From Candidatus Hermodarchaeum yapensis (GTDB lineage: Archaea; Asgardarchaeota; Hermodarchaeia; Hermodarchaeales; Hermodarchaeaceae): DNA of 64,000 nt. How positions within the stretch are numbered: the first letter of the stretch is position 1; each line of letters opens with the position of its first letter. Positions 13,595 to 59,290 of this stretch are shown piece by piece. Below the pieces are notes generated by a model. That model was not told where the DNA came from. It did not search any database and saw nothing but the letters and a program-made list of their open reading frames with translations. Made by a program: the position numbers and the translations under genes. The stretch is taken from positions 1 through 64,000 of the forward strand of contig JAEOSK010000013.1 in the NCBI GenBank assembly GCA_016840405.1. Reading direction: 5' to 3'.

Positions 13595-15349
13595 ATGAGT
13601 CAGCGAACGCTAATTGATGCAAGTATGGGTCGTATAAAGGCAGATGTGGTCATCACCGATGTTCAGCCTATCGATGTAATTTCAAGAGAGATCCTCGAGG
13701 GCGGGATCGCCATTAAGGAGAATTCGATCTGTCGCATTGGTGATGTGAAAGACCTCATCGGAACCAAGACTAAGGTAATCAAGGGCCGTGGACGATATGC
13801 AGCCCCGGCTTTCATCGAATCACATATTCATGTCGAAAGCACGATGTTGACTCTCACAGAATTCGCTCGCGCTGCAATCCCCCACGGAACAGGCACCGCG
13901 ATTATTGACCCGCATGAGATGGCAAACGTCTCTGGTATCCGCGGATTGGAAATTTTAATGGAAGAGGCACGCAACCTTCCCCTTCGAATTCTGATGGAAG
14001 TTCCAAGCTGCGTACCAGCAGCGTCACCTGAATTGGAAACTGCGGGAGCCCGTCTGGATGCGTTTACGATTGATCGTCTTCTTCAAGATCCCATGGTAGT
14101 TGGTTTGGGTGAGGTTATGAATGTCCCAGCGGTGTTGAATAACGATGAGGACATTCATCTGAAAATCCAATTTGCCCGGAGCCAAGGTAAGGTCGTGGAA
14201 GGTCATGCTCCTGGATTAACTGGAAAACGACTTAACGCGTATATTGCTGCAGGTATTATGTCGGACCATGAATGTGAAACAGCCGAAGAAGCGGTTGAGC
14301 GACTTCGAATGGGAATGACCATCATGGCTCGTGAGGGATCCATTGCACGAAATATGGTGGACATACTTCTCCCATTGTATAAGGAAGGACGGGATTTACG
14401 GCATTGTACAATTTGTTCCGATGATATGTCTCCAGTCGAGTTGGCCGATATTGGTCACCTTGACCGCAGCCTTCGTCGGGCGATTGATGCGGGTATTGAC
14501 CCACTTGTTGCTATTCAATTAGTCACTTCGAATCCAGCACGATTTTTTAATTTGTCGAGGTTAGGACATCTTGCGCCTGGTAATGTGGGTGATATCGTTC
14601 TTCTTGATGACCTTAAGAAAATTGACGTTAGTTTGGTGCTGCACCGTGGACGTGTTGTGGCGAAGAATGGACGGCTCACTGCGAAACTTCCTCGTTTTCA
14701 ATACCCTCCAGACTTGACCCATACTATTCGTTTTGGTGCAATCCCCACTGTGTTACATTACATGGTATCTGCTAAGGATGGAAAACACAAGGTTCGGGTT
14801 ATCCATGCACGCGATGGGAGTCTTATTACTAGCGCTGAAACCCACACACTTACAGCCTCAGATGGATACGTCCACCCCGACTTAGACAAGGATATTACGA
14901 CCATAGCTGTCACTGAAAGATACATGAAAGGTGGAAATATCGGAGTAGGATTCATTCGTGGTTTTGGCATCAAGGAGGGGGCAATTGCTAGCAGTATAGC
15001 TCATGATTGTCACAATATCATAACAGTTGCTACAACGCCCGAAGATGCCCTGATGGCTGTTAGTACCGTTTCGCAAGGTAATGGAGGAATTGCAGCTGTA
15101 AACGGTCGAAAGATATTAGCCACGTTGCCCCTACCCATTGCTGGGATAATTACCGATGAACCAGTGGACAAAGTAGCTCGAAAACTACAAGCAGTACGTA
15201 AAGCAGCTAGTGACTTAGGGTGTCAACTCGAGCATCCCTTCCTAACTTTAAGTTTCATGGCTTTGCCCGTTATTCCCGAACTTCGAATCACTGATAAAGG
15301 ACTGGTTGATGCCGAGGAAATGAAAGTTGTCCCCGTTCTCCTCGATTAA
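13595..15349 (+). CDS. ade: Adenine deaminase
   Basis: HIHVES, DPHE, PSCVPA, GHAP, DHE, AHDCHN, LSFMALPVIPELRITDKGL. Confidence 0.95.
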   Translation: MSQRTLIDASMGRIKADVVITDVQPIDVISREILEGGIAIKENSICRIGDVKDLIGTKTKVIKGRGRYAAPAFIESHIHVESTMLTLTEFARAAIPHGTGTAIIDPHEMANVSGIRGLEILMEEARNLPLRILMEVPSCVPAASPELETAGARLDAFTIDRLLQDPMVVGLGEVMNVPAVLNNDEDIHLKIQFARSQGKVVEGHAPGLTGKRLNAYIAAGIMSDHECETAEEAVERLRMGMTIMAREGSIARNMVDILLPLYKEGRDLRHCTICSDDMSPVELADIGHLDRSLRRAIDAGIDPLVAIQLVTSNPARFFNLSRLGHLAPGNVGDIVLLDDLKKIDVSLVLHRGRVVAKNGRLTAKLPRFQYPPDLTHTIRFGAIPTVLHYMVSAKDGKHKVRVIHARDGSLITSAETHTLTASDGYVHPDLDKDITTIAVTERYMKGGNIGVGFIRGFGIKEGAIASSIAHDCHNIITVATTPEDALMAVSTVSQGNGGIAAVNGRKILATLPLPIAGIITDEPVDKVARKLQAVRKAASDLGCQLEHPFLTLSFMALPVIPELRITDKGLVDAEEMKVVPVLLD

Positions 15350-23643: not shown

Positions 23644-24894
23644 TTAGTCAGAGGTTTTGGGTTCATGGATGAATGGTAACAAGATTGCTGCGATGACAGT
23701 TAGGAATAGGGCTAATCCAAAGGTGTAACTTGGTCCAAGGAAGACCCATAGGAATCCTGCAATGACACTAGCAGGTAGCAATGCGAATCCGATAAGCATC
23801 TGATAGAATCCAAGAACGCTCGACCGAATCTTCAGTGGCGAGAGTTCGGAGATGAGCGCGCTTTGCATTGGAACTGTTGCACCGATGCTGATTCCGTAGA
23901 AAATGAGGGCAAAGAGGACTGTCCAAAAGTTGGGGGTGAATAAGAAGATGGCACACATGCCCCCAAAGAAAAGGAATCCGATGAGAATGGTGCGTCGTCG
24001 CCCAATGCGGTCACCTAATCTTCCAAGTGGAGCAGAGGTCAGAGCCGCTGCTAGAGTGAATACCAGATAGGCCACAGGTACTCCAAGAATTGGATTAATT
24101 GCAGGCGGGATAATAAAAATTCCAGCGTAGAGTGTGACTAGGGACCAACTAAACGAGGCAAGGGCAAAGATGACACTTAACGTAATAAAAATTGCTAGAC
24201 TCCTGTTTATTCCGCTTATGTGGAAAACAGCTTTCCCAGGTTCTTTTCGATAATCGACGATTCTATAAATAATAACCAGTGCACCAATGAATGTGGGAAT
24301 AGCGGCAAGGAGGAAAAGGAGTCGAATGTTCATTAGCAGATCGAAACCATAGACAAGCGTAAGCCAGGGGAAGACGAAAGTTACAAATGCAATCGTGATG
24401 AGGATACCAGCTGTTGCCCCAGTGTGGTCAGCCGTTCGTAACAAACCAAAATTCTTACCACGGGTCTCATGTGTTGATACGTCTGCCACTATGGCGTCTC
24501 GTGGTGCACCCCGCACTTTACCTGCCCGATCTAATATTTTGGCAGGTATCAGCCATTGCCATGTAGGCGAGAAAGCATAGACAATACGGGATGTGGCACC
24601 CATCATATAACCAGACCAGATGAAGGGTTTTCGCTTCTGAATTCTGTCTGACCATATTCCTGAAATTCCTTTTAGTATGTTTACAACGAGGTCACCCGTA
24701 CCATCAATTATTCCAAGGATTAGCGGGGTTAAACCTGGTGGAGATAATAAACCGACGAAGATTGGCCAGATGGAGAAAACAATGTCACTGCCCATATCGT
24801 TGAGAAAGGAAGCCGCACCAAAAGTGCGAACGACAGTTTTCTCTGATGGAGCGTCACTCAGGAGTGCTTTATCGGAAGAAGGCACTTCGTTCAA
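23644..24894 (-). CDS. MFS transporter
   Basis: SFLNDMGSD, DRAGKVRGAPRDA, GRLGDRIGRRR. Confidence 0.9.
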   Translation of the reverse strand: MNEVPSSDKALLSDAPSEKTVVRTFGAASFLNDMGSDIVFSIWPIFVGLLSPPGLTPLILGIIDGTGDLVVNILKGISGIWSDRIQKRKPFIWSGYMMGATSRIVYAFSPTWQWLIPAKILDRAGKVRGAPRDAIVADVSTHETRGKNFGLLRTADHTGATAGILITIAFVTFVFPWLTLVYGFDLLMNIRLLFLLAAIPTFIGALVIIYRIVDYRKEPGKAVFHISGINRSLAIFITLSVIFALASFSWSLVTLYAGIFIIPPAINPILGVPVAYLVFTLAAALTSAPLGRLGDRIGRRRTILIGFLFFGGMCAIFLFTPNFWTVLFALIFYGISIGATVPMQSALISELSPLKIRSSVLGFYQMLIGFALLPASVIAGFLWVFLGPSYTFGLALFLTVIAAILLPFIHEPKTSD

Positions 24895-24938
24895 GATGGT
24901 CTCCTCAAGAGAGGAGTCTATAAACGTAAGTGCCTTTT

Positions 24939-25100
24939 ATTCCTTTAATTTCAGTCAGGTGAACTACCCCGTCTTGAAGGGCGGAGTTTCCTGCTTCATT
25001 CCATCGACTAATGCCGACTGGTCCACAGGCTCTACTCGCCGTTCCGGCGATGTTGTCCGGTTATGATGCCGTGGTTCTTGGTCACCATAGCCGGAACCTC
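24939..25100 (-). ncRNA. Putative TnpB-type reRNA/omegaRNA scaffold plus flanking guide
   Basis: Stems TCCGGCTATGGTG/CATCATAACCGGA and TCGCCG/CGGCGA, CCTG/CAGG pairing, terminal hairpin; TATA-like TTATAT at ~25121-25126 on the minus strand. Confidence 0.55.
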
Positions 25101-25172
25101 AACTAGAAATTAATAAGAGCATATAATAGCACCACGATTTATCTCCGCTTTGGAAGGACAAGAGTTTCTCGA
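24959..25172 (-). mobile_element. Non-autonomous IS200/IS605-family element (PATE-like), no ORF
   Basis: Minus strand ends ...GCCTGTGG...ATGAAGCAGGAAACTCCGCCCTTCAAGACGGGGTAGTTCAC (typical tnpB right end); degenerate matching hairpin at ~25140-25170 as the left end. Confidence 0.75.
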
Positions 25173-25176
25173 AGCT

Positions 25177-27018
25177 TTAGATAAATAGTGAAGCAGCATA
25201 GGTTTTGGCGAAGTCAGAGTGGCGGGCTAAATCAACAAATTCTACTGATTTGGCGAGACGAGTCGCATGCTTGCGTTGGGTGGTGGAAAGGAGAGCCAGT
25301 TGAGCACCACTCAAAGCAGCGTTCCCAACGAAGGAGACTTTGTCTAAGGGAATGTTGGGAATAAGTCCTATTCGTTGAGCACTGGCAGGATTGAGATAAT
25401 TTCCAAACGCACCTGCGATGAAAACATGACTAAGTTTAGCTGGTTTGAGCTTTTGATGTTGGAGAAGTATGGTGTATCCGGTTTGAATGGCGGCTTTGGC
25501 AAGTAGGAGTTGTGAGATGTCGTGCTCTGATAGAAGTAGGGGAGAGTGGCCCGTTCCTGTTGGGTGAGTATAGATGACTATTGATCGTGTTTTTCCTTCA
25601 GAGATTAGATAGTGATTCGCCTGTTCTGTGAATCGTCCCTTGGATGAGAGAAGATTGGCTTCGGCGAGTTGAGCGATGGCATCGACGACGCCAGAACCAC
25701 AGATTCCGATGGGAACGGCATCATCGATTGTTGTAATTTCAAATTCCATTGAGGTTTTGTCCAGTGTTAGTCGTTCGATGGCTCCACTGACGGCTTTCAT
25801 TCCATGTTCAATTTGGGCACCTTCAAAGGCAGGACCTGCTGCACAGGAAGTAGCTGATATGCGATCTCGATTTCCAAGGATGACTTCGCTGTTTGTTCCG
25901 ATATCGATGAGTAGACATGGTTTTCGTTGTTGGTGCAGGCTAGTGGCGAGGATATCAGCAATGGCGTCTGCTCCGACATAGCCTGCAATATTGGGTAGAA
26001 CATATACAGCAGTTTGTGAGGAAAGTTGGAGACGTAACTGATTAGCTTGGGTCTCAATTGGTCCACGGAAGGGGGGAGTAAAAGGTCCATAGGCGAGATG
26101 GGTGGTATCTAGTCCAAGGAAAAGACTTGTCATGACAGTATTGCCAACAACCACAAGCTCATAGATACGTTCGGATTGAACACCTTTCGAAGTGAGAGAG
26201 TCCAAGATGGTGTTTATCCCTTCGATTGCAGCAGCTTGGAGTTCAATTAGATTATTGGGGCTAACAGCTGCGTAACTGAGGCGAGTCATGATATCTTCGC
26301 CGAAACGTAGTTGGGGATTTTCTACCCCAGCTGAAGCGATGTGCTCTCCGGTGGCTAGTGAGAATAAACTTCCTCCGAGTTTGGATGTTCCAATATCTAA
26401 TGCAACACCATACATGATGTCTCGAGCATCACCAGCATGAATATCCAAGAGTTGGGTGTTATTTCGGATTACCAGAGTCACCTGACCACTAGCCGTTCTC
26501 ACAGCGCTAGATGTTTTAGCGATAACGGGTACAGGATACTCCCAACGTGTTTTCCTTTTTTGTCCAAAGAGATTTGATAATCCCATTAGGACTCGTTCTG
26601 TGTCGGGAACTGAAAAATCTGGATCAACTGGGGGAACATTGACTAGGATTGTTTTTAGTGCCGGATTTAATTTCATAGCCTTCATTTTACCAGCAATCTG
26701 AATACGTCTGCGTAATGTTCGCGTCGCAGCTGGTATCATGACAACGATGTCTTGTTTTCCAATCAGCCTAGTCTGACAGGCTAGCCGAAATCCAGCTTTT
26801 CGATTTTTTGTAGTTAAAAGCGAACACTCAGCAGTTGTGGGTTTATTCACCGCCTCTAACGGTTTGACATGAACACGGCATTTACCACAGGTGCCTTTTC
26901 CCCCACAGTCAGAACGTAATTGCAGTCCACCTCGATCTGCAATCTCAAAAAGAGTTTCACCTGATTTCGCGGAGATTTGTCGACCTTCTGGTTCAAAGGT
27001 TACTTTCCTATCCGACAA
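25177..27018 (-). CDS. RACo/RamA-type ATP-dependent corrinoid reductive activator (2Fe-2S plus ASKHA domains)
   Basis: CGGKGTCGKC, RLACQ, DIGT twice, AAGPAFEG, GICGSG, AGAFG. Confidence 0.9.
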   Translation of the reverse strand: MSDRKVTFEPEGRQISAKSGETLFEIADRGGLQLRSDCGGKGTCGKCRVHVKPLEAVNKPTTAECSLLTTKNRKAGFRLACQTRLIGKQDIVVMIPAATRTLRRRIQIAGKMKAMKLNPALKTILVNVPPVDPDFSVPDTERVLMGLSNLFGQKRKTRWEYPVPVIAKTSSAVRTASGQVTLVIRNNTQLLDIHAGDARDIMYGVALDIGTSKLGGSLFSLATGEHIASAGVENPQLRFGEDIMTRLSYAAVSPNNLIELQAAAIEGINTILDSLTSKGVQSERIYELVVVGNTVMTSLFLGLDTTHLAYGPFTPPFRGPIETQANQLRLQLSSQTAVYVLPNIAGYVGADAIADILATSLHQQRKPCLLIDIGTNSEVILGNRDRISATSCAAGPAFEGAQIEHGMKAVSGAIERLTLDKTSMEFEITTIDDAVPIGICGSGVVDAIAQLAEANLLSSKGRFTEQANHYLISEGKTRSIVIYTHPTGTGHSPLLLSEHDISQLLLAKAAIQTGYTILLQHQKLKPAKLSHVFIAGAFGNYLNPASAQRIGLIPNIPLDKVSFVGNAALSGAQLALLSTTQRKHATRLAKSVEFVDLARHSDFAKTYAASLFI

Positions 27019-57751: not shown

Positions 57752-59290
57752 TCAAGCATTCAATTGGTAACAGACGCCACTGAACTGGTCAAAGATATCT
57801 CGAAAAGCTTTGTAGAGTTTTTCATAGGTGGCTACGATTTCTGGGTCGGGATTGACTTCTTTGTCATATGTGAAGATTTTTTCCAACTCATCAAAAGACT
57901 TGTATTCTCCAAGGGCTACAGCGGCAACTAAAGCTACGCCCACAGTCCCGGCGTCCTGAAGTGTAGTGACACGTCGTAATGGGACATTTAGTATGTCAGC
58001 AAAGATTTGCATCCATAAATCGCTTTTCGCGCCGCCACCACAGATATTCAGTTGTGTAATCTCATGACCCATACTGCTCAGTGCCTCTTTGACCCAGCGT
58101 GTATTATAGGCAACACCTTCGAGCACCGCACGAACCATATGGGGTCGATTGTGATCGAAGCTGAGATTCAAGAAAGCACTTCGCACGAACGGATTGATAA
58201 ATGGGCAGCGCTCACCAATTGGCCACGGTAGATAGAGGAGGTTCCGACTACCGGGTGGTACTTCTTTGGCCTGTTCAGTTACGAGGTCATAGACATCCCT
58301 ATCGGCTGTGGAGGCTTGTTCACTTTCTGCAGTGCAAACGTTTTCCACGAGCCACGCCAAGCACGAACCTGCACTTTCCATGTGACCAGTGAGGAGTAAA
58401 CGTCCCGGAATAGCACTCTCAATGGTTCCAGCCCCACACAAATCGAACTGGGGCTCTTCTTGATGTTGAGAAATCCATCCTGAAGATCCAATATACAGAT
58501 GGGGTTTCCCAGGAGTAATTGCACCTGATCCAACTGATACCGCGACGAGGTCTCCACAGCCGCATACCACTTGTGTTTCAGGTGTAAGACCTAGGCTTTT
58601 CGCTGCCTCTGGGGACAGGGTACCGAGTATGTCGGTTGTTTTCACAATGGTCGAAAGATAGTCCATTGAGAGACCGAGGCCTTCTTCAATGATTTCTGGT
58701 TCGGGTTCGTGTTTATCGATTCTAAAGTAATTCCAGATACAGGCATGACTCCAATCTGTATAGAAATCGTCGACACCTGCTTGATAAAGAATCCAATCTT
58801 TGACATCAACAAACTTCTTAGTTTTTTTGAAAATGTGGGGTTCTTCATTTTTCACCCAGGCGATTTTCGCCAAAGGATCCTTAGCCGACATCACGGGGAT
58901 AATGTTCTTTGCCATCATGTCTGGGAAAGTGAACTTGTTCATCAGCGGTGTAACATGATCTACGCTTCGTACATCCATCCAAAGGATGGTCTTACGTAGA
59001 GGCCGCCCCTTAGTGTCAACTGGGATCACTGAGGCCATCATCGCATCTACTGTGAATGCCGTAACTGACCGTGGATCAATTTTGGTTTGGGCAAGCACTT
59101 GACGGGCTGTAGTGGTTATTGCATCCCAATAAACGTGGGGATCCTGTTCTGCCCAACGTTCTTGTGGATACTCAACCTGGTATGCCTGTTGGACAGTCCC
59201 TTGCACACAACCCTGCATGTCAATAATACTCGATTTCGTTGCACTCGTACCCAAATCACAAGCCAAAATGTACTTCTTCGACACAAACAA
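57752..59290 (-). CDS. FGGY carbohydrate kinase (xylulokinase-like)
   Basis: DLGTSATK, AEQDP, WMDVRS, GERCP, GGGAKS. Confidence 0.9.
   Translation of the reverse strand: MFVSKKYILACDLGTSATKSSIIDMQGCVQGTVQQAYQVEYPQERWAEQDPHVYWDAITTTARQVLAQTKIDPRSVTAFTVDAMMASVIPVDTKGRPLRKTILWMDVRSVDHVTPLMNKFTFPDMMAKNIIPVMSAKDPLAKIAWVKNEEPHIFKKTKKFVDVKDWILYQAGVDDFYTDWSHACIWNYFRIDKHEPEPEIIEEGLGLSMDYLSTIVKTTDILGTLSPEAAKSLGLTPETQVVCGCGDLVAVSVGSGAITPGKPHLYIGSSGWISQHQEEPQFDLCGAGTIESAIPGRLLLTGHMESAGSCLAWLVENVCTAESEQASTADRDVYDLVTEQAKEVPPGSRNLLYLPWPIGERCPFINPFVRSAFLNLSFDHNRPHMVRAVLEGVAYNTRWVKEALSSMGHEITQLNICGGGAKSDLWMQIFADILNVPLRRVTTLQDAGTVGVALVAAVALGEYKSFDELEKIFTYDKEVNPDPEIVATYEKLYKAFRDIFDQFSGVCYQLNA

Follow-up and report, generated by a model that had tools for sequence, protein, structure and literature searches.

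Short protein-less repeats derived from IS200/IS605 elements and ended by palindromes (PATEs) have reportedly been seen in the archaeon Haloquadratum walsbyi, and haloarchaeal IS200/IS605 elements are said to express omegaRNA-type transcripts. TnpB-like proteins also include the nuclease-dead TldR repressors, whose guides are exapted and immobile.

The PATE-like elements of Geobacillus stearothermophilus are protein-less, retain an omegaRNA, require both TnpA and TnpB in trans, and have both ends in common with tnpB-bearing elements of the same genome (PMC10055086). Meers et al. (2023; PMC10055086) remark in their Discussion that PATEs often encode omegaRNAs and that TnpB must then act in trans, and the cut-and-restore pathway that they demonstrated for tnpB-bearing elements is explicitly extended by them to PATEs. 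In the literature we found no paper showing that protein-less IS200/IS605 omegaRNA elements use TnpB in trans. For the omegaRNA of ISDra2 from Deinococcus radiodurans a 116-nt 3′ scaffold suffices, and it is held by TnpB mostly through the backbone (Nakagawa et al. 2023, PMC10097598; structures 8exa and 8h1j). Its pseudoknot joins -6G, -5U, -3C and -2A with -106G to -102U, which form a GGAAU loop (PMC10097598).

Here we describe an element of this kind in an Asgard archaeon, a Hermodarchaeota MAG of 2.7 Mb in 77 contigs and 86% complete. The window is the 64,000-nt stretch of one contig that was analyzed, and its minus strand between coordinates 24959 and 25180 is a 222-bp protein-less, non-autonomous IS200/IS605 element of the PATE/MITE type. 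We estimate a probability of roughly 80% that this PATE is an internal-deletion derivative of an ISDra2-like tnpB element, in which the promoter has been fused to the omegaRNA region. PATEs encoding omegaRNAs are already known; new here are the Asgard host, which adds these archaea to the hosts of protein-less elements that keep an omegaRNA, the derivation of the promoter and the 5′ stem from the start of tnpB, an insertion that is neutral to a stop codon, and the contrast in selection between spacer and scaffold. Relative to the PATEs of Haloquadratum walsbyi, both the sequence families and the host phylum differ.

A 222-bp element inserted at a stop codon

On the minus strand, the insertion point of the mini-element is the stop codon of a RACo-like gene, and a gene coding for an MFS transporter follows downstream. 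The RACo-like gene ends at 25177 and encodes a product of 613 aa with RACo-type domains and a 2Fe-2S ferredoxin domain; its closest homologues come from MAGs of Candidatus Hermodarchaeota and Promethearchaeota, which places the host among the Asgard archaea. The RACo-MFS pair recurs in seven congeners, where only a short gap separates the two genes and the element is absent; in all seven the RACo gene terminates in ..TTA TTT AT(C/T) TGA. The sequence TTTAT at 25185-25181 (minus strand) is the TAM, and in it the RACo-like gene has its final codons (..F-I); when it is joined to the right flank, CTGACTG.., the result is ..TTT ATC TGA, by which the L-F-I-stop of the congeners is recovered. The first base of the element is therefore 25180 and its length 222 bp, and no target was duplicated; the initial annotation, which had started it at 25172, is corrected in this respect. 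The first bases of the element, CTAA, remake the isoleucine codon and provide a new TAA stop. The local genes are little affected, the RACo-like gene having received a new stop codon without any change to its protein, and the MFS promoter being intact.

The flanks of the 24959-25180 insertion show no repeat, and the insertion is 3′ of TTTAT. A (T/C)TTAT sequence directly precedes most of the 30 family copies that we collected, and in these 30 copies family conservation begins at the TAM, with unrelated DNA upstream of it. Insertion 3′ of TTTAT without target duplication is a hallmark of the IS200/IS605 elements. Subterminal hairpins are present at both ends of the element, on the same strand, and terminal inverted repeats are absent; at the left end, G-T pairs across the family make the hairpin strand-specific. 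The classification as an IS605-type element without tnpA or tnpB agrees with the domain searches, in that the contig of the window contains no match to either PF07282 or PF01797. The only open reading frame touching the element (24677-25066, plus strand, 129 aa) overlaps the start of the MFS gene in antisense and spans both unique flank and repeat, and is most likely spurious.

Both borders are sharp. Other copies of the family on environmental contigs lose their similarity to this locus precisely at 24959, and four estuary metagenomes from separate studies, in which contigs were compared over 24500-25600, have the element in place at this site. Over the same interval, none of the contigs from these four metagenomes joins across the element as an empty-site allele would.

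Copies and distribution of the family

A BLAST search of the genome for further copies had been suggested. With the region as query we found 13 protein-less copies in the genome, each of ~220 bp and 72-86% identical, together with tnpB-linked copies. All 13 end sharply in GTAGTTCAC, and the flanks beyond are unrelated and unique to each. Mini-elements are present in eight of the 15 genomes of the genus, and a total of 30 distinct full copies was assembled from the genus, from Hermodarchaeota YT2_032 and from Promethearchaeota DZ2S.148. The copies in the latter two genomes have the same layout, the order of which is TAM, left-end hairpin, BRE/TATA, a spacer of ~20 nt, a scaffold of ~140 nt, and the right-end hairpin.

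In the window, one occurrence of a 19-mer taken from the element was counted where zero were expected. Scanning 185,579 species genomes for exact matches to a 21-mer gave seven in Hermodarchaeota and Promethearchaeota, and all of them are full mini-elements. Three bacterial matches to the 21-mer (in Acidobacteria, Synechococcus and Chthonomonadales) have no extension and were set aside as chance. There is also a third, more divergent protein-less subfamily, with members at L017:1375-1597 (C60:~13600-13824) and L016:1418-1635 (C73:~58780-58999), in which hairpin C (see below) resembles that of the tnpB-linked scaffold.

Probable derivation from an ISDra2-like tnpB element

Full tnpB elements in the same genome share the left end of the mini-element, as for example at C40:35012-33715. 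In these full elements TTCAAATA is followed 21-22 nt later by the ATG of tnpB, and this TATA-to-ATG spacing implies that the tnpB mRNA is leaderless. The BRE/TATA-like box of the mini-element (25135-25121, minus strand, including TTATAT at 25126-25121) aligns to TTCAAATA, and in a global alignment with the C40 tnpB element the box corresponds to the tnpB promoter, with GAGG occupying the place of the former ATG. The box is at least 90% conserved among the 30 copies, and in 27 of them GAGG, the start of the scaffold, follows it after 22-23 nt; the consensus of the box, GTGGAGTTTAAATA, reads as a putative archaeal BRE/TATA inherited from the tnpB promoter.

The scaffold begins with GAGGTCC and is ~140 nt long. 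Its first feature is a 5′ stem-loop, stem A (25055-25100, minus strand, with the long stem of the window copy spanning 25098-25055 and a conserved apical loop CCAAGAACCACGG), which is a remnant of the first codons of tnpB. Stem A aligns to ATG CTC AGG GCC TTC CGG .. TAC CCG AAC CAA of the C40 tnpB element, and the first TnpB residues matching it are M-L-R-A-F-R-Y-R-L-Y-P-N-Q. By alignment, the promoter together with the initial ~45 nt of the scaffold corresponds to the left end plus the first codons of an ISDra2-like tnpB element, and the last ~95 nt are 72-74% identical to seven or eight tnpB-linked 3′ ends in the genome, with which they share four helices. The earlier suggestion that the right end has the pattern from which TnpB reRNAs are transcribed is supported by this homology, which the right part shows to 3′ ends of the resident tnpB elements. 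In the tnpB-linked copies the tnpB reading frame extends to a TAG inside GTAGTTCAC, and similarity stops at GTTCAC in all copies, so that by position the end of the scaffold coincides with the right-end boundary.

No tnpB in the genome is associated with exactly the scaffold of the mini-element, the nearest being ~74% identical. A search of 400 genomes of the phylum with the pattern AAYGCNGC-N(15-45)-CCGAGAACCAAGG returned 0 matches, which says little because the loop CCGAGAACCAAGG derives from the 5′ and not the 3′ end of tnpB. The element has in common with the Geobacillus stearothermophilus elements all four of the features listed above, but differs from them in its Asgard host, in an archaeal BRE/TATA taken from a leaderless tnpB, in the TAM TTTAT, in a 5′ stem made from the first codons of tnpB, and in having no resident tnpB with its exact scaffold variant.

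A scaffold with covarying helices

We examined covariation in an alignment of 14 protein-less and seven tnpB-linked copies, for which RNAalifold gives four helices with 26 pairs. Compensatory double changes are seen in 15 of the 26 pairs, which refutes the idea that the stems have decayed randomly among the copies. Paired cells amount to 94.1%, as compared with 28-51% when the partners are slid by 1-3 columns, and the covariation score is 0.441, as compared with 0.209 ± 0.016 after shuffling, with 0 of 500 shuffles reaching 0.441. The alignment of all 30 copies has 36 pairs, 14 of them with compensatory changes. The fold of the window copy alone is only modestly better than that of shuffled sequences (z = -1.9), and the strength of the evidence therefore comes from the comparison among copies.

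The outer part of stem A has compensatory switches from GC to AU in eight copies of the 30-copy alignment. Hairpin B (TCGCCG-GAA-CGGCGA, 25036-25050, minus strand) contains an invariant GGAAC and, in comparison with the tnpB-linked copies, has double changes in three of its six pairs with 99% of cells paired, CGCCG/CGGCG being replaced by CGAGG/CCTCG between subfamilies. A CCUGU/GCAGG helix (24990-25029, minus strand, with CCTGT at 25029-25025 and GCAGG at 24994-24990) encloses hairpin C (25021-25001), which has compensatory changes in six of eight pairs, 97% of cells paired, and a switch from CCA..TGG to GCU..AGC between subfamilies. The right-end feature (24959-24987, minus strand) consists of a hairpin at 24987-24966, with compensatory changes in six of seven pairs, and the terminal cleavage motif GTTCAC at 24964-24959, which is 99% identical across the 30 copies.

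The order of helices, with stem 1 followed by a stem 2 that encloses stem 3, and then stem 4, is the same as in ISDra2, as are the G-U-U-C-A at which the scaffold ends before the guide and the presence of a GGAA-containing loop. It differs from ISDra2 in that the RNA gene is alone, without tnpB, in its core of ~93 nt rather than 116, in a stem-1 loop of 3-5 nt rather than 19, and in the TAM, which is TTTAT here and TTGAT in ISDra2. The GGAAC in the loop of hairpin B and the terminal GUUCA are complementary, and their bases correspond to those named for the ISDra2 pseudoknot, by analogy with which we infer that they may pair; both partners are invariant, and covariation thus speaks neither for nor against this pairing.

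An Infernal search had been suggested as a check. No Rfam 15 family matches the window at its gathering score, and between 24600 and 25500 nothing relevant is found at E ≤ 10. The Rfam matches around the element are to snoRNA and lncRNA families only, with E ≥ 4, and are at chance level; the negative result means only that the curated models do not fit.

The apical loop CCGAGAACCAAGG (25069-25081; columns 111-123 of alignment A2) descends from the tnpB codons for Y-P-N-Q and is at least 90% conserved in the 30 non-coding copies. It falls in the part matching the dispensable 5′ region of ISDra2, and contains a GAAC that could pair with the terminal GUUC.

Conservation along the element and the state of the window copy

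Mean pairwise identity among the 30 copies is 0.77 in the TATA box, 0.37 in the unconserved spacer between it and the predicted transcription start (25101-25120, minus strand), 0.87 in the scaffold core and 0.99 in the terminal motif; the hairpin ends, at 0.57-0.62, are below the scaffold core. The window copy deviates from the family at six of 105 conserved columns, three of which are in the TATA box, where it has GTGGTGCTATTATAT rather than the consensus GTGGAGTTTAAATA. Its left-end subterminal hairpin (25143-25163, minus strand), for which the family consensus is CCCC-GTCC / GGGC-GGGG, is degraded: the arms are TCTTGTCC (25163-25156) and AAGCGGAG (25150-25143), only five of eight positions pair, four of them as G-T, and the fold energy of -4.4 kcal/mol ranks 19 of 30. 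The right-end hairpin is among the weaker ones, and the scaffold helices are intact.

The locus had been described as looking like a stand-alone guide-RNA gene, and the TATA box that precedes the scaffold by 22-23 nt fits this description for the family; for the window copy the description is weakened by the three changes in the TATA box and by the poor left-end hairpin. Judging from its damaged TATA box and weak left-end hairpin, the window copy is probably poorly expressed and hard to mobilize, and it is probably fixed and slowly decaying in the sampled populations.

These observations bear on whether the family might simply be inert selfish DNA, in which conservation reflects nothing beyond what TnpA needs at the ends, and no RNA is made or used from any copy. 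TnpA is absent from the genome assembly, the public sequencing runs listed include none of RNA, in the window copy the TATA box is mutated and the left-end hairpin weak, and the copies within the genome differ by 15-25%, indicating that there was no recent burst, all of which would be expected of a fossil. We nevertheless regard this explanation as unlikely, since it is the internal scaffold core (0.87) and not the hairpin ends (0.57-0.62) that is best conserved, next to a spacer that is saturated (0.37), and since the TATA box and its spacing are kept in 27 of 30 copies. Moreover, helices that TnpA does not use covary, and because these are internal they cannot be explained by the requirement of TnpA for end hairpins.

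Candidate TnpB and TnpA partners

The genome contains ~28 matches to the TnpB Zn-ribbon; they fall into several families, and in three of these the GTAGTTCAC end is found. An ISDra2-like family is nearest to the mini-element, and its 401-aa member on contig C59 is related to ISDra2 TnpB with E = 1.9e-67 and has the equivalents of D191, E278 and D361. Eight copies of this ISDra2-like tnpB were found, two of them intact (on contigs C59 and C67) and six disrupted. The initial annotation had looked to a cognate tnpB in the genome, and this holds insofar as there are related and intact ISDra2-like TnpB genes, but not for one with the exact scaffold. The disrupted copies have in-frame stops, a frameshift or a truncation; three are on contig C14 (139174-140373, 141129-142322 and 15094-15534) and the others are at C40:46818-48017, C36:14346-15536 and C40:33842-34924.

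Two more TnpB families have quite different 3′ scaffolds but the same right-end hairpin and GTAGTTCAC terminus, the first at C74:9567, C73:8329, C40:17294 and C67:11972, and the second at C9:14296 and C42:58099. One TnpA type therefore seems to be required by at least three tnpB lineages together with the mini-elements.

No Y1 TnpA (PF01797) was found in the 86%-complete assembly of this genome, and among 19 genomes of the family just one has it, with the element end GTAGTTGAC. Because TnpA is found in only one of 19 genomes, excision, which is the source of the guide target, may now be very rare. This single TnpA gene is in congener G013 (locus L094, contig C208, 2307 bp), where it is divergent beside tnpB in an IS605-type unit that ends in ..CGATGGTAGTTGAC, one base different from GTAGTTCAC.

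A close homologue of the ISDra2-like TnpB was not found in four congeners that carry the mini-element, all of them incomplete MAGs. Across the 15 congeners the co-occurrence of mini-element and ISDra2-like TnpB is partial, and it carries no evidential weight as the genomes are incomplete and related.

A possible cut-and-restore role in trans

The mechanism that we envisage would begin with archaeal RNA polymerase initiating near 25100-25096, ~22-25 nt downstream of the TATA box, and transcribing first the scaffold and then the flank. A TnpB from another element, with those on C59 and C67 as candidates, would bind this RNA in trans and use the first ~16 nt of the flank as its guide. For the window copy the flank that would serve is CTGACTGAAATTAAAGGAAT (24939-24958, minus strand), which is assigned by its position and is outside the mobile DNA. 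The only matching target would be the scarless donor joint of TTTAT with CTGACTGAAATTAAAG, formed if a Y1 TnpA excises the element, and repair of the cut joint from the sister chromosome would restore the element. With the element in place, the target would be preceded by GTTCAC and not by a TAM, and would be safe from cleavage. Since the 3′ 116 nt suffice for ISDra2 TnpB, with contacts mostly to the backbone, cross-use of an equivalent scaffold is plausible, and the C59 and C67 TnpB proteins may use the scaffold of the mini-element in this way.

We tentatively extend this to the family as a whole, which might be a guide-only hyperparasite of TnpB, that is, a self-promoted omegaRNA lineage that borrows the resident ISDra2-like TnpB. 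This proposal is a doubtful one; under it the family would have persisted across Hermodarchaeota species that mostly are without TnpA, with a scaffold variant of its own and a new conserved 5′ stem-loop. If the hyperparasite proposal is true, a dozen guide loci scattered over the genome would be served by a single TnpB, amounting to a naturally occurring multi-guide system outside CRISPR. The family offers a natural test case, having ~13 loci and a conserved promoter exactly at the former spacing of the tnpB start codon, a scaffold under visible selection, and two intact candidate TnpB partners in one small archaeal genome.

The guide region and the MFS gene

The MFS transporter gene starts with a TTG at 24894, and has its own TATA at 24924-24919, 30 nt before the TTG. 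The guide region is 15 nt upstream of this TATA box. All of the motifs listed in the initial annotation are present on the minus strand, including CTGACTGAAATTAAAGGAAT at 24958-24939; the guide that it placed at the MFS promoter does adjoin it, although this is a by-product of the insertion site. A search for matches to the guide next to a TAM had also been suggested. The sole perfect match of CTGACTGAAATTAAAGGAAT in the genome is its own site, for none of the copies does the guide have another genomic site with one mismatch or none, and the single TAM-like match has three mismatches. The guides having no second near-perfect site, nothing points to regulatory exaptation.

We considered two roles in which the element would act on the MFS gene or another gene. 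In one, the window copy would be chiefly a mobile promoter, with an outward transcript that enters the MFS gene and alters its expression; the two are co-oriented, and the stretch from the right end to the MFS start (24894) has no T run. We think this improbable, somewhat more so than an inert family, given that the TATA box of the window copy is damaged and that the MFS gene keeps a TATA of its own, so that read-through from the element is possible but not needed. A crude count of open frames, moreover, finds no bias in orientation, the next frame being co-directional for six, convergent for five and absent for two of the 13 copies.

In the other, a domesticated guide would direct a nuclease-dead, TnpB-derived repressor resembling TldR against the MFS promoter or some other gene. 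Exapted guides are known from TldR systems, and like TldR guide RNAs the element has a TnpB-type scaffold and a guide near a promoter, in this case 15 nt from the MFS TATA box. This role is very improbable, more so than any other considered here: the guide is just the flank of a multi-copy mobile element, which holds for all of its other copies too, the nearest TnpB retains all three RuvC residues (D-E-D) and with them an intact catalytic site, there is no second guide site with one mismatch or none, and the element is absent from the same gene pair in the seven congeners.

A 9-bp inverted repeat on the minus strand, AAGGCACTT (24936-24928) and AAGTGCCTT (24887-24879), brackets the TATA box and TTG of the MFS gene, and within it is a further hairpin, CTCCTC-TCTT-GAGGAG, at 24916-24901. 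The inverted repeat and its inner hairpin may represent an operator or, alternatively, a 5′ RNA structure.
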